This document shows, one piece after another, positions 30,921 through 63,285 of a DNA stretch of 64,000 nucleotides (position 1 is the first letter of the stretch; every line of letters begins with the position of its first letter). The position numbers and the translations under genes were made by a program. Location: positions 31,607 to 95,606 of the IMG/VR virus record IMGVR_UViG_3300021431_000095. One strand, written 5' to 3'. The stretch comes from a virus (taxonomy: Duplodnaviria > Caudoviricetes). The notes beneath the pieces were generated by a model. The model saw only the letters and a list, made by a program, of their open reading frames with translations, did no database searches and was not told the DNA's origin.

Positions 30921-30946
30921 AATTTTCAAATTAGGAAAATAATCGG

Positions 30947-30954
30947 TATCTTTG
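30947..30954 (+). promoter_or_regulatory. Bacteroidota-type -7 promoter element TATCTTTG
   Basis: AATCGGTATCTTTGCA upstream of a run of small ORFs. Confidence 0.7.
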
Positions 30955-30977
30955 CAGTGTAGTGATAATTATATAAT

Positions 30978-51100: not shown

Positions 51101-52174
51101 ATGATTGAGAAGAAAACATCGTACACTCCCAACGACGACTTCAATTGGGACTTATACGAAAACGGTTACAACGGCGGAACCAAGCTCGTCATCAACAGAC
51201 GAGTGAAAGCCAAGAAAGGTGACAAAGTGTATTGCCACGAACCTTATGCGCAGGAGCTCTATGATCGCATGGAGGCTTGTATGAGCGGAGTGAAGCTCGC
51301 TCCTAAGGATTCCATGGAGGGTGCCCTGTACAGCGTCGACGACATTTATGCTGTATCGGATCATGAAATCATGATTGATTCGAATAACGGTATGTCCAAT
51401 GTTGTCGATCTCAACAAGGAAACCCAGTTCATCCACTCCATCGGGTTGAATGACGCAAAACAGTTCGTGCAGGCAATCAAGCAGAACCAGCAGTTCAAGA
51501 AGGATCTTCTCAACGCTGATCTGTTCGCCAAGGTTGTCGACAACAACCGCGTGTCTATCTGGGACGGATATCGTGCCAAGATTGAATCCGGATTCTTCGA
51601 GGAACTCAACCGCAAGGATGGACCGAAGTATGCCTACACCGCCAAGATTATCAGCCTGAACAACGGAGGTTACAACGTCGACATCATGGGTGTCAACTGC
51701 TTCCTTCCTAGTTCGTTGGCCGCAAGCGGTCCAATCGCAGACTATTCGAGCCTGCTCGGAAAGGATGTCATGGTCTGTGTCGTCAACTACTCGGCGAACA
51801 CGAAGAACTTCGTTGTGTCTCATAAGAAGTATCTCGAAATCACATTGCCTTCGCGTATAGCTGAGGAACTCTATGTCGGCAAGGATGTGTTCGTGAAGGT
51901 CACTGGAATCTCGAAGAACGGTCTGTTCTGTGCTATCAAGGACAAGAACGGGGACTATGTGTTCGCAAGTCTTATGCACAGGAGCGTTATGAGCAGCGAT
52001 ACAGAATCATCGTTCGATCGCCATGAGTTCAGAATTGGGGACATGTTCAAGGCTTATGTTCACAAGATCAACTGGGTGAACCCGAAGAACTGCAGGATTG
52101 TCATCGGCGACACTGTACCTACACCAGAAAAAGAAGAAATCAAAAAGGAGGAAAACGATGGAAATGAACAATGA
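51101..52174 (+). CDS. phage-encoded ribosomal protein S1-like protein (short form)
   Basis: N-terminal DFNWDLYENG; S1 domain GGYNVDIMGVNCFLPSS...FVVSHKKYLE; second S1 domain VKVTGISKNGLF. Confidence 0.8.
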   Translation: MIEKKTSYTPNDDFNWDLYENGYNGGTKLVINRRVKAKKGDKVYCHEPYAQELYDRMEACMSGVKLAPKDSMEGALYSVDDIYAVSDHEIMIDSNNGMSNVVDLNKETQFIHSIGLNDAKQFVQAIKQNQQFKKDLLNADLFAKVVDNNRVSIWDGYRAKIESGFFEELNRKDGPKYAYTAKIISLNNGGYNVDIMGVNCFLPSSLAASGPIADYSSLLGKDVMVCVVNYSANTKNFVVSHKKYLEITLPSRIAEELYVGKDVFVKVTGISKNGLFCAIKDKNGDYVFASLMHRSVMSSDTESSFDRHEFRIGDMFKAYVHKINWVNPKNCRIVIGDTVPTPEKEEIKKEENDGNEQ

Positions 52175-55232: not shown

Positions 55233-55694
55233 TTACAATCCAATTATGTCAAAAATTTCATCGAGCGACTTTCTGTCCTTGTCGTAAAGTTTCTGCATAT
55301 ATTTTACGAACTCCTTTCTGCTTCCCTGCATGGAAAAGCATAGGATTGAATCTGGGAACTTCTTCCTTGCTTCCTTGATAATCGATATGATAGACGGGAA
55401 CCTTATTGTCCCTTCCTTGCACATGTCGTCTATCATTCTTGATTTCTCCCTCTGGAAGAACTGGTTGTCTATTCCATTGTTGTCCTTCAGCCACATCTTT
55501 TCGGCTTCGTATTGTGTGGGATAATATTTCAGATCCTGCTTGTTAATGAAACACACACCGTCTTTCAGATCACATGAAAGTGATGTGACGGCGTTTTCCT
55601 GAACATATTCCGGATCTCCTATCTTTGCGTAGTAATGTTCCGCGTTGGAGGATATTCCCCTGTAGGATGTAATGTCTATAAATTGTATGTCCAT
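55233..55694 (-). CDS. hypothetical protein
   Basis: ATG at 55694 downstream of a host-type promoter. Confidence 0.65.
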   Translation of the reverse strand: MDIQFIDITSYRGISSNAEHYYAKIGDPEYVQENAVTSLSCDLKDGVCFINKQDLKYYPTQYEAEKMWLKDNNGIDNQFFQREKSRMIDDMCKEGTIRFPSIISIIKEARKKFPDSILCFSMQGSRKEFVKYMQKLYDKDRKSLDEIFDIIGL

Positions 55695-55712
55695 AACAAA
55701 TGTTTTACAGTG

Positions 55713-55720
55713 CAAAGATA
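55713..55720 (-). promoter_or_regulatory. Bacteroidota-type -7 promoter element TATCTTTG
   Basis: Minus strand reads ATCGGTATCTTTGCA. Confidence 0.7.
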
Positions 55721-55842
55721 CCGATAAAAAATGAAAGTTGAAAATAAGGATGAAATGATCAATGAAATTTTTATTTATAATATTATATCGTATAATTAAA
55801 AGAAATGATTGTTAATGTGTAAAACAAGCATATTTATAAAGT

Positions 55843-55875
55843 AAAAGGACTACACCTTTTAGTGATGTAGTCCTT
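55843..55875 (-). terminator. terminator hairpin sharing its stem with 61685-61711
   Basis: AAGGACTACA...TGTAGTCCTT. Confidence 0.7.
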
Positions 55876-55987
55876 AATGGAATTTCAAATTTTTACTATT
55901 TACTACTTATATAAATCTGTCATCTTTAGAAAGTTGCCGAAGTGACTGCTTTTTGTACCTACTTATTACAATAACACTATACTTACT

Positions 55988-58900
55988 TTATTCTTTTACA
56001 ATACTAAAGTTCTTCATCGTAAGACCAGAAGAATACTCGATATATAACCCGACTATCTTCTCACCATAACCAGCACATAGTCCTTCATAAGCAGTCAGAC
56101 CATTGTCAGAAACGATAAATTCTGCTGATTGATTAACATAATCTGTACCACTAACATTTATAGTACACAGAACATCACCATACTGCTTCTGTGTGAGTGG
56201 GGTCTTATTCTTTATTGAACGAATTGTGATAGTACCACTGCCCTTCGCATCAACAGAATATTTAATTGTTCCGTATGGTATGCCGTAGTGCTGATATACT
56301 ACGCTTCCAGTTGTGATAAGAACAGGAACACCATCAACCATTGAAACACTACAATCACCGATATAACCATCAGGATTAGATGGAACAGTTAGGGCGGTTG
56401 GCATAAATTCCTTAGCGGTATTCCTTAATCTTGGATTATATATTAGATTACCATCATACATCGGATGTTTAAAGCATACATCATAAGCCTCGGCTTTTGT
56501 GAACAGCTCAATGCCTGTCTTGTACGCATATTTCAGCAAGCCCTCCAATATAAGTCTGAAGCTCCAAGTATCATCGCTGTCAATAACCTCTCCCCAGACA
56601 ACACCGTTTGCTGTGTTATGCCTCCATGCTTCTATTGCATTCCTGAAGCTATCTTTCGTATTGTCGTTGGCACCACCGTCATACATCTGTACCTCATACG
56701 GTTCGCTGCCTTGCAGGTCAATACCTTCAGTATATTCTGTCCACGCACGGCTAAAACTGAAACTTCTGTTAGTATGATATGGTAGAGCATCAGGTCTTGA
56801 CAGATGGGAGTTGAGAATAAACTGCAAAGACATGCAGGGTTCTTTCTGCCCATCATAGCGTCCTGGGCTTGCAGAATCATGAGTTGTCTTGTAGCCATAC
56901 TCTTTGAGAACATCCGTCCAGCTTCTTATCTTTCCACTATAAAGAGAAGATTCAAACTTTGCAAGACAGTTCATTAATTTGGTATGTTCGGCATCAAAAT
57001 AATACTTACCGTCTTGTTCAAACCAACAATGACTTGCCTTACTTCCAGGCAGTGACCACGTGAGATAATTGTAGTTAATTCTGAATCTTTCTTTCAACAA
57101 CATATTGGTTATCTCCAGTATTCTTTCCCACACTTCATGATTGGCAGATGTTGCGCAACCAGTGAATATACCACCTGTGTATATGCTTCCATTCCAGCTT
57201 CCTCTTGAACTTCCTGTTGTACCAAGATACTTGTTTGAAAGTGTGTCAAACAGCACAATCAAGTCGTTTGCACCTCCATAAAGGCTGAAATACTCTCGGA
57301 ATTGCTGACATTGTGCATCAGTCATCGAACCCCATGCTACATTAATGTCTGGAGCCTGATAACCGATAGTGTCTTTTACTATGTCGGTCAGAGTAATACC
57401 AAATACATTCTTTCCATCTCCTCTGTCATTCCTCAGTTGGTCATTGCTTGGGAAAGGCACCTGATTTCCGTCAGGACTTGATGGATTCTGACCATTGAAC
57501 ATCGGCTCGTCATAAGGGAATTTCTGGTGAATCCATGTGTGGTCGCCAAGTTCACTTCCACTGTTCATTACAGCATTTACTTCACAATTCTTTGCCTTGA
57601 CATCTGCTTCATTATCAGAAATATCAACTGCACGATGAACTTTGTTAAACTCAGCCCTGAATCCGTATTTCTGCAAAAGAGGAATCACGACAGAAAAATC
57701 AGAAGGCACATAATCGTCAAATCCAAGGGCAACAAAACGTCTCTCAGGGGTTACACTTCCTTGATAATTGTGGGTTATACGTTTTTGTCCTGGGTAATAG
57801 GTCAATGGAGTATCATTTGCAATCCACGCATCCTTGTCGATGCTGTAGAACTTCATAGCCACCTCGTCTTTTGTTGATGTGACATCAAATAATCCTTCTA
57901 TATTCTTATCTGTCGAATTTTTAAACTTTTTCTCCTGATATGCATATAGCTTCCCTTCAAGTTCAGAATATCTTTCTGTAGAGAATCTTGCATATTTGGC
58001 ATCATTTGGTACAATTATGCCATTTGATATGTCACCCTGACCAATTCCAATAAGGGTGTCTTTGTCACTTGCATAGAAACAAACAGACGCACCAGTACCA
58101 CTGGTTTGCATGTTGGTCTTAACTTTTAATCCAGACTTTACAGCAAAGAAATTAGGAGTGTATCTGTAGTTTGTACCATCTTTAGCAAACGGCTTTCCTG
58201 TTGTAGACCTTAATAATCCCTGTTCAAGTTCTGTTACATCAAACACTATTTCAGTGTTATCAAGCAACTCATGGACTATTATAGATTGATCCACTGCTTC
58301 AGCAACTTGATTTTCCAAGTCCTCTAATGATGTACTCTTCCATTTTGCATTAGGTGAAGTATTGTATTGATTTCTATTGGAAAACCTTAGATAACCGTTA
58401 TGTGGTATTGTCAGTTCTCCATAACTACCATCTACCAACTCAAAATTGTAACCTTGGTCATATACTTTGCTATCATCATAAAGAGCCACTACAACATTTC
58501 CAGATGCCCAAACAGACACAAGTAACACATCTCCTTTAAACACTCTTGTATAATCTGTTGTGTAATTGAATCCGTTTTCGCTTGAAATGGCTCCGCTTGC
58601 ATTTCCATTAATAAAACCATTTCCGTCAAAGACAAGGTTCAAATTACTTTCCTTGACTTTAGATATTTCGTGGTTTTCTTTTTCTTCCATATTTTTAATG
58701 GCTTTATATACACCGCCACTTCTCGTCAATCCTTTACTATACTCCGTTGGCATGTCATCAACACTACCACCTATCATTAGCAGTTGCAAAGCATACAAAT
58801 TTGCTTTTTCATAGCATATCCTCATGTAGCTTGCACCACTTGGTACTGTAAATTCTTCAAATCTATAGATGTCTGACGCACCATCTATTGCTGACAGCAA

Positions 58901-60187
58901 AGTCTTTGAACTGTTGTAATAACAAATACCTCTTCCAGTTCCTGTAGACCTTGCATTAGTTTTGAATTTCTGACCTTCTTTGACAGGTATGTAATCTACG
59001 CTATACTTATAGTTTGGATTGTCTGTGTTATTTGGAAGTCCGTTAGAGCCAAGCAATCCGTTTGAAAGTGTGATAGAACCAATTATATTTATATCAATAG
59101 TTTCCCCAATTATTAGGGACATGTCTTTCAATTCTGATTCTTTAGCTCCCCCACTTCCAACAAGATTCTTACTTCCCGCAGTAGGCTCATTATCCACACC
59201 TTGCCAATCACTTTCAGTAGTGCTAAAAGTATCAGACATAAGTCTGTATTGCACATACTTGTTGTCAGAACTCGGTACAGAGCCTTGTATAAACTTAATG
59301 CTCATACCACCCTTTCTAACTGCAGTAGGAATAAGAGTATTCAAATTAGCATTACTTAACAAAGCAGAAAGAGATTCAAAAACAGCACCACCATTATGAG
59401 CAGATACATCGTAAACAGCTCCTAAAGCAAGTTCATTCTGTATTCCTCCACTCTTAACTAAATTATTAGAACCAACAGTAGGTTCATTGTCAATACCTAC
59501 ATTCTTCACCTTTTGTCCCGTTGCAAAAGTACCACCTCCAGAGACATTATTAGCTTGGTAATATTGACCATCATAATAACACTCAACAGTCTCACCGTCT
59601 TCCCAAGTATTCGTAGAACTACAGATCGAGCCGTCATATATTATACTCTTCGCTCCCTGCCCGTTTATATTCAGCGTCGGTGTACTATTACCTGTGTGCT
59701 TGTTGGTAAACCTGATCTTCATCGATCCACCCAAACTCAACACATAACCGCTTGCATCGTTGACTGTTTTTGCTGCAGTACCTCCGCTTGTTGTACAGGT
59801 ATAATACCCTACCATTGCATTGCTACCTTCTTCATACCAAGACTTGACATTGCCTGTCCACACACTCGAATCGAGTACATAGTTTCTCACACAATTCACT
59901 CCAAGCATGTCGGAATTAAACGTCAGTTTTAATCCACCATGCTTATACTCCTCAGGAACCTGTGCGATAGCCTCGCTCAAAGTGAAGATTGAGGTGTCCC
60001 TTCTCGGCGAGTCTACACCTGCAGTCTTGTTAACTTGGTGCAGCGAGATGTTATATTCGGTTATATAAGTGGTGAGATCGTCGCCGTCTGGCTTGTCCAC
60101 TATAGCCTTCTGTATTGAAATAGGATAGACAGAACTGTCTTTGTTTCCCCTGTCCTTGAACTGGATCATGCTGGAATCTATTGTCAT
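55988..60187 (-). CDS. tail fibre/tailspike-like receptor-binding protein with polysaccharide deacetylase-like domain
   Basis: DNEPTxGSxNLVxSGG repeats, three beta-rich repeat modules, LGFDDY and GDHTWIH (NodB/CE4-like); minus-strand ATAAATA at 60240-60246. Confidence 0.72.
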   Translation of the reverse strand: MTIDSSMIQFKDRGNKDSSVYPISIQKAIVDKPDGDDLTTYITEYNISLHQVNKTAGVDSPRRDTSIFTLSEAIAQVPEEYKHGGLKLTFNSDMLGVNCVRNYVLDSSVWTGNVKSWYEEGSNAMVGYYTCTTSGGTAAKTVNDASGYVLSLGGSMKIRFTNKHTGNSTPTLNINGQGAKSIIYDGSICSSTNTWEDGETVECYYDGQYYQANNVSGGGTFATGQKVKNVGIDNEPTVGSNNLVKSGGIQNELALGAVYDVSAHNGGAVFESLSALLSNANLNTLIPTAVRKGGMSIKFIQGSVPSSDNKYVQYRLMSDTFSTTESDWQGVDNEPTAGSKNLVGSGGAKESELKDMSLIIGETIDINIIGSITLSNGLLGSNGLPNNTDNPNYKYSVDYIPVKEGQKFKTNARSTGTGRGICYYNSSKTLLSAIDGASDIYRFEEFTVPSGASYMRICYEKANLYALQLLMIGGSVDDMPTEYSKGLTRSGGVYKAIKNMEEKENHEISKVKESNLNLVFDGNGFINGNASGAISSENGFNYTTDYTRVFKGDVLLVSVWASGNVVVALYDDSKVYDQGYNFELVDGSYGELTIPHNGYLRFSNRNQYNTSPNAKWKSTSLEDLENQVAEAVDQSIIVHELLDNTEIVFDVTELEQGLLRSTTGKPFAKDGTNYRYTPNFFAVKSGLKVKTNMQTSGTGASVCFYASDKDTLIGIGQGDISNGIIVPNDAKYARFSTERYSELEGKLYAYQEKKFKNSTDKNIEGLFDVTSTKDEVAMKFYSIDKDAWIANDTPLTYYPGQKRITHNYQGSVTPERRFVALGFDDYVPSDFSVVIPLLQKYGFRAEFNKVHRAVDISDNEADVKAKNCEVNAVMNSGSELGDHTWIHQKFPYDEPMFNGQNPSSPDGNQVPFPSNDQLRNDRGDGKNVFGITLTDIVKDTIGYQAPDINVAWGSMTDAQCQQFREYFSLYGGANDLIVLFDTLSNKYLGTTGSSRGSWNGSIYTGGIFTGCATSANHEVWERILEITNMLLKERFRINYNYLTWSLPGSKASHCWFEQDGKYYFDAEHTKLMNCLAKFESSLYSGKIRSWTDVLKEYGYKTTHDSASPGRYDGQKEPCMSLQFILNSHLSRPDALPYHTNRSFSFSRAWTEYTEGIDLQGSEPYEVQMYDGGANDNTKDSFRNAIEAWRHNTANGVVWGEVIDSDDTWSFRLILEGLLKYAYKTGIELFTKAEAYDVCFKHPMYDGNLIYNPRLRNTAKEFMPTALTVPSNPDGYIGDCSVSMVDGVPVLITTGSVVYQHYGIPYGTIKYSVDAKGSGTITIRSIKNKTPLTQKQYGDVLCTINVSGTDYVNQSAEFIVSDNGLTAYEGLCAGYGEKIVGLYIEYSSGLTMKNFSIVKE

Positions 60188-60268
60188 ATTCTTAGAAACT
60201 TATTTTCGTTTTCGTAGCACACCATTATGCGCCTTTTTGTATTTATCTTTCTTTTCGCAGTTCTCCTT

Positions 60269-60710
60269 TCAAAATTCTATGTTGTTTCTCCTCAACCAGT
60301 CGTACAGTGTGGAAACGTTGACTTTGAATTTCTTCGCTATGATCTTCTTTGACTTCCCGCTTCTTAGCATCTTTTCGATCTTCTCCCTGTGATCGTCGAG
60401 TTTGTATTTCCTGTTCGTGGATCCGTTCGGTCTCCCCATTTTGTATCCAGCCCTCTTCTTCGCAGCCAGTCCTTCTTTCGTCCTTTCCACGATGTACTCC
60501 CTCTCCTGTTCGGCTACGAAACTGTATACCGTGAGAATGAGTTTCGATATACAGTCGTCCCTCAAAGTGTAGTTTTCCTTGAGGGCTACAATGGAGACTC
60601 CTTTTTTCGAGACAGGAGTTCATGACCTGAGAAACGATCTGGATGCTTCTTCCGAGACGCGAGCACTCCGTGACTATGATTGTGTCGCCGCGTTTCGATT
60701 TCCTGATTAT
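60269..60710 (-). pseudogene. serine recombinase (resolvase/invertase), 5'-truncated and frameshifted
   Basis: KRGDTIIVTECSRLGRS...CLEK / GVSIVALKE...AEQERE.I.ERTKEGL...GRP plus HTH; one extra base in the T6 run at 60602-60607; catalytic YxRVS N-terminus absent. Confidence 0.85.
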
Positions 60711-61679
60711 GCTGCTGGTTCATTCCCACCGAATATGTCAAGAATGATTGTTGCAAGGAAGTTTTATGATAAGTATAAGTTTTCCGATGAAGATACAGTA
60801 TTTAGGAATTTAAAACATTCTGGCTGGACTAAAACAGGAAACTGGAATACTGCTAATGGATTTGACAATACGTCTTTCTTTAATAAATCTGAAGTATGGT
60901 CTTGTGAGGAAGGTGCTACTGCAATAATTGATACTTTTGGGTATAAATATGTTAAAGCCATTTGGAGTGAGTATTTAAATGTTCCTGGCAGTGACGCTAA
61001 TGATTATAGTTTTACTATTGAATTTTCTAAAGATAATTTTAGTACAATTGCAAAAACTGACACGTATACTGTAACTAACACAAGCAAGATATTGCAGAAA
61101 ATTAGGATATATGATATGTCGTATTATTTTTCTGATTGGCAATCGGAACATTATAAGATGAGAATAACCCCAACAAGTAACTATGGAAAAGCACTTATTT
61201 GGGGGTGTGAAATGTGGAATAATCCAAGACTTGATGTTACGGTTGAAGCATTTAGTGGTTCTACAGCATTGATGCACAAACTTTATATGTTAGACTCTTA
61301 CGTTAATGGTAAAGATTTTAAACCGCAGTTAATAATATGTGATACTCTTGTTACTAACGATAGCGATTATATTCATAGAGGTATTTATTATGGAGAAAAA
61401 CATACAATTTCTAATTGGTTTACTTCCTATAAGGCAATTTTTGATAAAATTAATACTTTAGGAATTCCAGTCCTTATGTTTGCTCCTCATTATGCCAATA
61501 CGTGGCTTACTTCTGGTGCTGAATCAATTATTAAAAAATATAACACTGGAGTTATAGACATTTATAAAAAGATGCAATATGTAACACCAAGAAGTAAAGT
61601 GACTGGAGCAGATGGAACTCATTTATCGAATTATGGAATTTCTTATTACTTTGAAGAACTTGAAAAAATATTTGATTAA
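60700..61679 (+). pseudogene. 5'-truncated SGNH-esterase tailspike-like cassette
   Basis: FSGS, TND and DGTHLS (blocks II, III, V) present, block I GDS absent; the ORF-track start at 60579 is antisense recombinase sequence; AT-rich. Confidence 0.6.
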
Positions 61680-61684
61680 AAAGT

Positions 61685-61711
61685 AAGGACTACACCAAGT
61701 AGTCCTTTTTT
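61685..61711. terminator. terminator hairpin sharing its stem with 55843-55875
   Basis: AAGGACTAC-ACCAA-GTAGTCCTT followed by T-run. Confidence 0.75.
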
Positions 61712-61712
61712 C

Positions 61713-62150
61713 TCAATATTTCACTTTTCCGTAATAGAAGAAATCCGGCTCGAATATCGTGTCGAACGTCGGTGCGTTCAGCAGCAGCTTGTTCCTCAGA
61801 GCATGTTTTATCATGTCGAATACGTCCTTGGCAAGCAGCCCGCTCTGCAATATCGGTATGATGAACCTGAATTTGAAATTCGCTATACAGATGTACTCGT
61901 AGTACCTCAACACTATTATTATGGAGCTGTCCTCACTCAGCTTCCCCATGTCGAAGTGATCCTTCTCCTTCTTCATGTCGAAATTCTCGTATCCTTCGAA
62001 CAGCAGCCTCCCTGGATCCTGCAGCAGGTTTGAACTCTCTATGTGGAAATCCTCCCTGTTGTCTATCTTCAGCAAAGGATTCTCCTCAAGGTTCTCGCTG
62101 TCCTTGACCTGCTTCTTCTGACCTTTCAGTTTACCTTTCTTTTCAGCCAT
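61713..62150 (-). CDS. hypothetical protein
   Basis: 145-aa ORF downstream of the GNAT gene. Confidence 0.65.
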   Translation of the reverse strand: MAEKKGKLKGQKKQVKDSENLEENPLLKIDNREDFHIESSNLLQDPGRLLFEGYENFDMKKEKDHFDMGKLSEDSSIIIVLRYYEYICIANFKFRFIIPILQSGLLAKDVFDMIKHALRNKLLLNAPTFDTIFEPDFFYYGKVKY

Positions 62151-62154
62151 TTGT

Positions 62155-63192
62155 TTACAGTTTCTTTTTCATCCACACATGATCTTTGTCATCACTGTCG
62201 GACTGGAAGTCCACGTATCCTTTCCTTCTATACCATTGATGTACGAAGGAGTCTCTCTTTACTTTCAGACATAAAGTTTCAGCCCCGATCTTTCTAGCCA
62301 TCTCGTCGGCTTTGCCGAGTATGATGTTTCCGATTCCGTTCCCGCGCATCTTCTCGTCCACAAACACATTGGAGAGATATGCTGTTTTCGGATCATCATC
62401 GTACATGTAAAGCGCGAACCTGAAAGATCCGTCTGGTGAATTGACATGCCATGTTTTTCCGAAATCTGTTGTTTCTTCCTTTACATTGACATCTGTTATA
62501 TTGTCATGGACATTTCTACTGTAGTTTACGAAATGGTAGATCATTTTCTTAAACTGGTCGAATGACATCATCAGTGAGTTATCCCTGTCGTACCACCTCT
62601 TTATCTCTTTGTCTAGATCATCACTCTCTTCCTCGTTCAGTTTATTATTGTTTTCTTCTTGCTTGCCTTCGTAATAAACATCGTCGTTCCTCAGCAACTC
62701 GTCGGACATCTTCTCCATGTTCTCCTCTGGATTCTCCCTCTCTTTCTCGTCCCTTTCCTTCATCTCGGCTTCCAGTTTCCTCCTCATCATATCTTCGTAT
62801 CTTTTCTTCCTTTCCTGATCTTTTTTCTCCCATTCAGTCTGTATCTCGTCCATGCTCCTGTTGTCGAACTCCGTCTTCTGTTTCTTGCCCATCTGTTGGA
62901 TCTTCATGGCAGCAACCTTCGAGTCATATTCCCTTCTTTCGCGGAGCTTGTCCAGTATCTCACCCTTTCTGTTTTTTATCCAGCTTTCTATAAGGTTCGA
63001 GTCGTACAGTCCATAGGCTTTCATATTGTCGCCGCTCTTTTCGACATAGCTCACTATGGGAAACCTCATTTTGCTAAGCACCGACGACACTTCGTTGTCG
63101 GTGAAGTTCGGATCTATCGCTTCCCTGAACCTTTTGACCACGCCTCTTCTCCAGTAGTGCGGTTTTCCGTTGTATATCGTATATCCAGTCAT
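62155..63192 (-). CDS. protein with C-terminal GNAT acetyltransferase domain
   Basis: AYLSNVFVDEKMRGNGIG (motif A), WYRRKGY; charged coiled linker. Confidence 0.8.
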   Translation of the reverse strand: MTGYTIYNGKPHYWRRGVVKRFREAIDPNFTDNEVSSVLSKMRFPIVSYVEKSGDNMKAYGLYDSNLIESWIKNRKGEILDKLRERREYDSKVAAMKIQQMGKKQKTEFDNRSMDEIQTEWEKKDQERKKRYEDMMRRKLEAEMKERDEKERENPEENMEKMSDELLRNDDVYYEGKQEENNNKLNEEESDDLDKEIKRWYDRDNSLMMSFDQFKKMIYHFVNYSRNVHDNITDVNVKEETTDFGKTWHVNSPDGSFRFALYMYDDDPKTAYLSNVFVDEKMRGNGIGNIILGKADEMARKIGAETLCLKVKRDSFVHQWYRRKGYVDFQSDSDDKDHVWMKKKL

Positions 63193-63211: not shown

Positions 63212-63285
63212 TATTTATCAGTTGCAGTCATGTACAAAGATACCGATTATTTGCAAAATATGAAAACCAAACACTCAAATAAATA
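63212..63285. promoter_or_regulatory. divergent promoter region
   Basis: Minus-strand ATAAATA (63212-63218) and TATCTTTG (63235-63242); plus-strand ATAAATA (63279-63285). Confidence 0.6.

Follow-up and report, generated by a model that had tools for sequence, protein, structure and literature searches.

Two tail-fibre inversion systems are the classical points of comparison for the locus described here: the G segment of phage Mu, inverted by Gin, and the C segment of phage P1, inverted by Cin. In both, the invertible segment contains the alternative tips, arranged tail to tail, but not the invertase, which is encoded outside. In the Hin/H-segment system of Salmonella, the invertase and a promoter lie inside the flipping segment, and what is switched is transcription rather than coding ends. 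Mosaic tail-fibre loci, in which tips are exchanged as modules by homologous recombination, can carry leftover gene fragments, and a tailocin study is said to offer an example of such modular tip exchange. We know of no standard precedent for an inverted fibre fragment fused to a recombinase pseudogene. That arrangement is found in the 64,000-nucleotide stretch of viral DNA analysed here (the window), which is bases 31607-95606 of the 95.6-kb linear IMG/VR virus record IMGVR_UViG_3300021431_000095, 21% complete according to CheckV. In this window an intact receptor-binding fibre gene lies next to the remains of a serine recombinase, which are joined head to head to the truncated end of another fibre gene. 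With modest confidence, we favour the reading that the locus is an inert scar left by one illegitimate recombination in a mosaic fibre locus.

A preliminary description had named the parts of this locus, and the parts were recovered in our analysis: a minus-strand fibre gene with a CE4-like C-terminus; a serine recombinase lacking its catalytic N-terminus and carrying a +1 frameshift; a headless plus-strand SGNH open reading frame (ORF); a join between the last two at about 60700-60715; hairpins with a shared stem at the ends of both cassettes; and a shift of the fibre gene to AT-rich codons near 59600. The interpretation that had been placed on these parts, a decayed inversion switch, is weighed further below. 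The features, in window coordinates, are as follows.

55845..55875, minus strand: intrinsic terminator downstream of the fibre gene, with a U-tract behind a 12-bp stem (-17 kcal/mol, z -6.0).

55988..60187, minus strand: receptor-binding fibre gene, an intact ORF of 1399 amino acids.

55991..56458, minus strand: predicted CBM6-like C-terminal beta-sandwich, about residues 1244-1399 of the fibre protein (Foldseek and VIA-align matches).

56456..57748, minus strand: predicted CE4 (NodB-type) polysaccharide deacetylase domain, about residues 814-1244 (Pfam, structure match, motifs).

59441..60187, minus strand: N-terminal anchor of the fibre protein, residues 1-249, ending in a junction motif.

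60269..60716, minus strand: small serine recombinase pseudogene of the invertase/resolvase type, with residues 54-201 kept (Pfam, tblastn, intact relatives).

60602..60608, minus strand: +1 frameshift in the recombinase, one extra A in an A-run (translation; the relative X6 is without the base).

60702..60716, no strand: head-to-head junction at which the minus-strand recombinase meets the plus-strand SGNH sequence (tblastn end-points).

60702..61679, plus strand: remaining 3' portion of a second fibre gene, coding for an SGNH O-acetylesterase tip that resembles Ape1 but lacks block I (homologues, profile, model).

61685..61707, plus strand: terminator hairpin of the SGNH fragment, with the same stem as the fibre terminator (-12.4 kcal/mol, z -4.7).

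61713..62150, minus strand: conserved flanking gene of 145 amino acids with no family match, at the right border of the block specific to the window.

We begin with the recombinase. Positions 58-92 of the Pfam Resolvase family align at 60603-60701 and positions 89-144 at 60443-60613 in another frame. Against an intact relative of 207 amino acids (P0056), residues 54-91 lie at 60716-60603 and residues 90-201 at 60607-60272. The E-helix and helix-turn-helix region are present in the ORF 60269..60565 (Resolvase positions 109-144 and HTH_7/HTH_38), and the remnant matches phrog_125, annotated as 'DNA invertase', with an E-value of 2e-22. Its GC content at third codon positions (GC3) is 0.63. The catalytic N-terminal domain is incomplete: residues 1-53 of P0056, which include the YIRVSTEKQ segment and the serine at about position 10, are absent from the window. 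In Gin/Cin/Hin-type systems a Fis-bound recombinational enhancer lies in the 5' part of the invertase gene, and this part is deleted here. The frame is also broken, and at 60602 a contig of the relative X6 leaves out one base, while contigs X1 and X2 agree with the window.

Close relatives, by contrast, keep the gene intact. P0056, P0132 and P0133 are 201-207 amino acids long, are at least 93% identical to the remnant, and have both the YIRVSTEKQ segment and a full Resolvase domain. The best family of P0056 is the Bacteroides master invertase Mpi (NF009949), matched over 4-200 of 207 amino acids with an E-value of 1.6e-61, although its score of 207.6 bits lies below the curated Mpi equivalog cut-off of 272; its best matches in the PDB are the Gin structures 4m6f and 3uj3. 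The comparison with related genomes that the preliminary description had proposed was thus borne out as regards the recombinase, which in these relatives is whole and sits directly upstream of the fibre gene. The adjacency is kept on single contigs spanning both genes, with P0132 and P0059, a fibre protein, each coming from a 9182-nt contig. Judged by homology, the recombinase of the window is a decayed copy of this gene at the same place. It cannot act, because the nucleophile Ser10 is missing.

Several further observations concern the same gene. The 98-amino-acid remnant ORF was found in three assemblies. A 1-nt difference at 60271 makes the recombinase of the relatives 6 codons longer (..EFERRIGK), and the window copy ends in ..IEF. 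Another relative (P0135, on a 4090-nt Logan contig) has a truncated recombinase ORF of 104 amino acids, which begins with an unrelated MKIGT and is homologous from about residue 109 onward; the alignment suggests an independent break of the same gene. The recombinase homologues of other phages and genomes (40-45% identity) are embedded in replication contexts or in unrelated ones. The homologue in Bacteroides phage B124-14, for instance, sits among anti-repressor, nuclease and replication genes and not beside fibre genes.

The plus-strand partner at the junction lies in the ORF 60579..61679, the first 40 codons of which are antisense of the recombinase. The fragment itself measures about 975 nt, is open over 326 codons at 31% GC and has a GC3 of 0.22. 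The ORF had no match in Pfam, PHROG or NCBIfam, and an exhaustive phmmer search with it returned 55 homologues. The closest full-length homologues (P0002-P0015) match only from ORF residues 41-45 (nt 60699-60711) onward, and in these proteins of 394-1048 amino acids the match occupies the C-terminal end or its vicinity; in more distant homologues the N-terminal half is matched and the proteins run on past it. Almost all of the full-length homologues listed have the block-I motif GDSI(x)G about 20 residues before the start of the match (two substitute one residue). At this site G44, D45 and S46 are near-invariant in 26 sequences, and the window has T, R and A. Blocks II, III (GxND) and V (DxxH) are present, with G231, N263, D264, D345 and H348 all kept in the window copy, as is every near-invariant residue downstream of block I.

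The fold was assessed on a complete homologue (L005:9821-10930), which was modelled at a predicted local distance difference test score (pLDDT) of 92 and identified as SGNH by Foldseek with an E-value of 7e-12. The top matches of this module are Ape1 and CE2 esterases, i.e. an SGNH domain with an inserted beta-sandwich, and the family profile matches the GDSL proteins 7ddy and 1yzf as well as the tail fibres 9lna and 9d80. Four members of the SGNH family, which are among the closest tip homologues (443-1048 amino acids), share residues 247-365 of the window's fibre protein at 55-65% identity, and two share its N-terminus weakly. Because the match is C-terminal, block I is missing and fibre regions are shared, we conclude by homology that the plus-strand ORF is what remains, on the 3' side, of a second fibre gene from the superfamily of the window's own, severed within the enzyme domain. 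The preliminary description would have been undermined by an independent full SGNH gene; what lies here is a truncated alternative fibre tip. It starts inside the SGNH domain, without linker or junction motif, and so the locus does not have two complete coding ends. Having neither a GDS block nor an anchor, the fragment cannot act as an esterase.

Intact SGNH-tipped fibres occur on three phage contigs (L005-L007), on which there is no recombinase and there are no inverted repeats. One alignment, to P0014, reaches back to ORF residue 32 (DYDCVAAF versus DYNCVNAF); we attribute this to chance, as the segment is precisely what the recombinase motif KRGDTIIV yields when read in antisense, and it is seen in none of the other homologues. 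Sequence comparison also shows that the N-terminus of the window's fibre occurs in alleles with other tips, an example being P0059 with its GDSL domain. This domain was considered as the missing allele and set aside because it is not alignable with the SGNH fragment of the window.

We next consider the junction. In tblastn alignments, recombinase homology extends up to 60710-60716 and SGNH homology starts from 60702-60708, giving an overlap of 9-15 nt, and GC content drops across the junction from 0.45 to 0.31. Logan contigs from two samples of one study (X1, 42 kb; X2, 4.8 kb) cross 59204-62400 without differences, the A-run included, and the remnant ORFs are also present in assemblies from NCBI, ENA, Logan and JGI. 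The junction is real and not an assembly artefact. It does not coincide with a cassette boundary, because it interrupts the SGNH domain downstream of block I and, on the other side, the catalytic domain of the recombinase. Break points that both fall inside catalytic domains are typical of illegitimate recombination and not of site-specific exchange.

Contigs of two relatives from ruminant-type gut samples (X5 and X6) place the borders of the rearranged DNA. They match the window at 59718/59901-60707 and at 61707-62151 at about 93% identity, so that the anchor is kept at the nucleotide level from 59718 or 59901 upward and the flanking gene 61713..62150 is covered. The distal part of the fibre gene, the SGNH fragment and its hairpin are unmatched at an identity of at least 85%; the uncovered parts of 55962-59657 and 60813-61274 in X5 and X6 mean that these are not shared at that threshold in the contigs, and do not mean absence. 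One X6 contig is identical to the window over 60622-60707; its next 167 nt differ from it, a length close to that of the 53 lost codons. In a second X6 contig the match begins at 61707, and 427 nt of different sequence adjoin it. By alignment, these divergence points delimit a window-specific block, 60708-61706, which replaces at least about 563 nt of the relative. The event appears to be recent, as the near-invariant residues are kept and the 326-codon frame is still open at 31% GC.

The fibre gene itself bears the marks of modular exchange. Among relatives of the fibre protein, 73 match the N-terminal part and 65 the C-terminal module. The anchor (residues 1-249) is 86% identical to that of P0059, which is 1194 amino acids long and comes from a close relative, and beyond residue 249 the two proteins are unrelated. 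The similarity ends abruptly after the motif GIDNEPxxGSxNLVKSGGI (residues 230-249, nt 59441-59500), which recurs twice more within the fibre gene and nowhere else in the contig. In its shorter form, D-x-x-P-x-x-x-S-x-x-L-V-x-S-G-G, the three copies in the fibre protein lie at window positions 59491, 59194 and 58759 on the minus strand. The motif appears to be a common site at which modules are exchanged by recombination. As a separate observation, the stretch 59159-59280 is where Logan contigs of several strains end or fork. GC3 is about 0.5 over codons 1-200 and 0.14-0.20 over codons 201-300, the drop lying at about nt 59590.

At the other end of the protein, Pfam PF01522 (Polysacc_deac_1) matches residues 813-891 with 25.4 bits, above the gathering score of 23.1. 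A model of residues 780-1399 has a pLDDT of 91.4 and shows the distorted (beta/alpha) barrel of CE4 enzymes; its best structural matches are CE4 deacetylases, with Z 13.4-11 over model residues 35-465. In VIA-align, Z was 13.4 to HP0310 and 12.4 to PdaC and to chitin deacetylase, with a root-mean-square deviation of about 3 Angstrom over 190-230 residues. Residues of the Asp-His-His metal site (D45, D46, H104 and H108 of the 620-amino-acid tip) are invariant in 28 sequences, and the CE4 motifs FDD and HxxxH read GFDDY and HTWIH in the window. The sandwich that follows (model residues 465-620) has Foldseek and VIA-align matches to CBM6, CBM4 and the C-terminal domains of tailspikes. The tip is thus predicted to be a CE4 deacetylase followed by a CBM6-like sandwich. 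As a unit, these last 620 amino acids form the C-terminal module of 65 different proteins of 770-1570 amino acids, at 38-68% identity.

The two hairpins fit the same picture. Both share AAGGACTACACC..GTAGTCCTT, with stem and first loop bases identical, and the hairpin 9-mer occurs 6 times versus 0.42 expected. Each is placed as an intrinsic terminator, the right one 6 nt past the SGNH stop codon and the left one 113 nt past the fibre stop codon; the hairpin at 61685..61707 could act in both directions. The identical 33-nt fibre hairpin was found at the start (1-100) of an unrelated 16-kb IMG/VR contig of 31% GC (L011, IMGVR_UViG_3300021387_000500), which also carries 24/25 nt of the fibre trailer 55951-55975 but not the 75 nt found between hairpin and trailer in the window. 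That contig's end cuts off the gene upstream of the hairpin. The presence of hairpin and trailer in an unrelated contig supports the idea that this terminator passes from phage to phage along with the 3' ends of fibre genes, and a travelling terminator would be a simple reason for finding the same hairpin on both tips.

In our preferred reading, the fibre would consist of a lineage-specific N-terminal anchor joined at the DNEPxxGSxNLVxSGG motif to a horizontally exchanged distal part, and the ancestor would have carried, directly upstream, a Mpi/Gin-like serine invertase of 201-207 amino acids, as close relatives still do. A single recombination, illegitimate and not site-specific, would have replaced at least about 0.56 kb by about 1 kb. 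The DNA lost would comprise the promoter and codons 1-53 of the invertase; the DNA gained would stem from a different, AT-rich fibre gene, whose 3' end and terminator now face the other way, the join being marked by the overlap of the two homologies. The invertase would later have acquired its +1 frameshift. The phage would now be fixed with the CE4 tip. We infer that one event sufficed to make the scar and that the SGNH fragment never served as a switch cassette at this locus.

The most serious alternative is the switch of the preliminary description, in which promoter, anchor and invertase formed a segment that flipped between the CE4 and SGNH tips until a deletion locked the CE4 state; the deletion would have removed one of the crossover sites along with the 5' end of the invertase and the start of the SGNH cassette. 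In a variant, a Mpi/Hin-like invertible promoter would have chosen between divergent fibre genes and been lost with most of the second gene. We think such a history unlikely. The invertase of the relatives is intact and conserved directly upstream of fibre genes with different tips, with Mpi as its best family and Gin as its best solved structure; the second tip, of the same fibre superfamily, abuts the invertase in the opposite orientation; one hairpin ends both tips; and the central block is native in composition between flanks that are both low in GC3. However, a junction inside the esterase domain requires a loss of at least 1.3 kb that happened to end there, the relatives do not share the SGNH fragment and hairpin at the threshold given above, and SGNH-tipped fibres do without invertase or inverted repeats in L005-L007. 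Tips placed head to head, with the invertase inside the flipping segment beside the constant coding part, are also not the Gin/Cin topology, and homologous invertases of other phages sit away from fibre genes.

The sites on which an inversion would act were sought directly. No inverted repeats of at least 14 nt (with up to 2 mismatches) were found among 59380-59780, 60600-60800, 61600-61760 and 55700-56000, the candidate borders, and an inverted-repeat search of the locus gave nothing but the two hairpins. The Mpi repeat consensus, which we take to be ARACGTWCGT, had 0 exact occurrences in the window and 8 with one mismatch versus 13 by chance, none of them in the locus. The Bacteroidota -7 box TAnnTTTG was not enriched in the window, and none lies between the recombinase and the fibre start. 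Nor was any orientation variant present in the X1 and X2 Logan contigs, which hold one orientation only and as contigs drop rare variants. Three contig joints (55916>61519, 55974>59159 and 59352>59403) were rejected as signs of rearrangement, since their sides are of 22-40 nt and lie in low-depth contigs of other strains or in AT-rich DNA. Like the preliminary description, we located no crossover sites, and the inverted repeats and the orientation polymorphism for which it had suggested looking did not appear in the window and in the X1 and X2 contigs, respectively. Its interpretation thus survives in part: the decayed recombinase, the truncated alternative tip and the alleles with other tips speak for it, and the lack of sites, the single orientation in the contigs and the position of the junction inside domains speak against it. 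Nothing shows that inversion ever operated here.

Several points nevertheless weigh against an inert scar. The layout is the one expected of a decayed switch, with an invertase by the fibre gene, an opposite second tip, a shared terminator, a native centre and foreign flanks. The at least 563 nt that lie in relatives between the intact invertase and the gene 61713..62150 might hold a second cassette and crossover sites, and contigs cannot show minority orientations. The break in P0135 hints at recurrent breakage of the gene, possibly driven by the recombinase. It is rather unlikely, in our estimate, that in the intact relatives the invertase lies inside a flipping segment together with promoter and anchor and joins the latter to either of two outward-facing tips, the window being a recently locked copy. 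By analogy with Mpi, it is remotely conceivable that the phage invertase has the capsule promoters of the host as its target, on which it would act in trans.

A large reciprocal inversion, with breaks in the invertase and in a second, complete SGNH-tipped fibre gene elsewhere in a genome of at least 286 kb, would place a mirror junction (the head of the SGNH fibre joined to invertase codons 1-53) at the distant site. Both partners are indeed cleanly cut with a short overlap and the rest of the locus is undisturbed. The search for an invertase N-terminus or SGNH head covered 95.6 kb, in which neither was found, while the same fibre protein sits on a 286-kb assembly. We regard this explanation as improbable: the gene on the far flank of the fragment, 61713..62150, is the invertase's neighbour in relatives, and therefore the inverted segment would have to end exactly at the hairpin. 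An assembly chimera or homopolymer error as the origin of junction and frameshift is very improbable, for although this is a metagenomic contig and Logan contigs break nearby at repeats (59204-59280 and 55702-55745), the contigs of two samples reproduce the sequence and the remnant ORFs were found in assemblies of four sources, so that the artefact by which the preliminary description could have failed did not materialise.

Several lines of evidence bear on the source of the DNA. A short S1-domain protein (51101-52174) matches only Prevotella Lak megaphages, at about 36-37% identity in 15 Lak records, and the window's own fibre protein is also present on a 286,399-nt assembly. On these two grounds, we identify the window DNA by sequence as a fragment of a Lak-like megaphage. 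Among the genes tested, that for the S1-domain protein alone ties the contig to this group; no Lak match was obtained with the fibre, the SGNH fragment or the recombinase. Lak phages recode TAG. The locus reads normally with genetic code table 11, and tables 15 and 4 change nothing relevant; alternative codes were discarded as a cause of the breaks, as codes 15 and 4 repair neither the recombinase nor the head of the SGNH ORF. In a phage collection, neither a nucleotide nor a protein match was found to the locus, its fibre or its SGNH ORF. Scans of IMG/VR with this ORF, the neighbouring GNAT gene, the recombinase remnant and a degenerate recombinase DNA pattern gave no match. The IMG/VR scan with the fibre N-terminus found only L004, at 39%, and a further IMG/VR scan gave a recombinase of 40% identity at a contig end (L009); a genome scan found only a 45% recombinase in a bacterial context (L010). 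Two metagenome scans for close relatives gave no usable match.

Two further features of the neighbourhood were observed. The GNAT gene lies two genes upstream of the fibre gene, at 62155-63192 on the minus strand, and encodes a protein of 345 amino acids, whose long middle part is rich in Lys and Glu and whose C-terminus is a GNAT acetyltransferase domain. Just upstream of it and of the minus-strand gene 55233..55694 is the motif ATCGGTATCTTTGCA(C/G)TGTA, which contains the -7 box TAnnTTTG (sites at 63235-63247 and 55699-55746; a plus-strand copy is at 30942-30961). The site at 55699-55746 is matched by many otherwise unrelated Logan contigs, in four runs. The motif is probably a multi-copy promoter of this megaphage group.

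The locus documents how fibres of gut megaphages are built, with a fixed anchor, a conserved junction motif, and CE4 and SGNH tips that are traded between phages along with the terminators behind them. The useful lead comes from the relatives rather than from the window: there, an intact Mpi/Gin-like invertase is conserved upstream of the fibre gene in Lak-like ruminant-gut phages. If that invertase does flip fibre parts or promoters there, it would constitute a host-range switch of unusual layout in a megaphage lineage, the reverse of Gin/Cin, and the window would show how such a switch dies.

Set beside the systems described above, the locus resembles Mu/Gin and P1/Cin in having a small serine invertase by a tail-fibre gene, a constant N-terminus and alternative C-terminal parts in opposite orientation. 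It differs in that the invertase is dead, there are no gix/cix-like inverted repeats, the tips face outward on either side of the constant part and the invertase, and the second tip is truncated inside its enzyme domain. The model of the preliminary description shares with Hin the placement of invertase and promoter in the flipping segment, but the locus has no flanking repeats. The likeness to Mpi of Bacteroides fragilis is that it is the best family of P0056 end to end and that the host phylum is Bacteroidota; however, P0056 falls below the cut-off and is not an equivalog, and Mpi itself flips capsule-locus promoters in trans. The Rin shufflon of Bifidobacterium prophages (PMC6109161) is likewise a case of a phage-encoded recombinase that diversifies a receptor-binding protein by inversion, but it has multiple cassettes, clear repeats and an active recombinase, none of which is present here. 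The complete SGNH tip has the architecture of Ape1 (8gkd, 4k3u) and CE2, with a beta-sandwich inserted after block I, whereas identity is about 10%, the module forms the C-terminal end of phage fibres, and the window copy is without block I. With mosaic fibre loci, finally, the locus shares a conserved anchor and junction motif, freely exchanged enzymatic tips and a leftover allele fragment beside the gene; what sets it apart is that the fragment is inverted and fused to a recombinase pseudogene.

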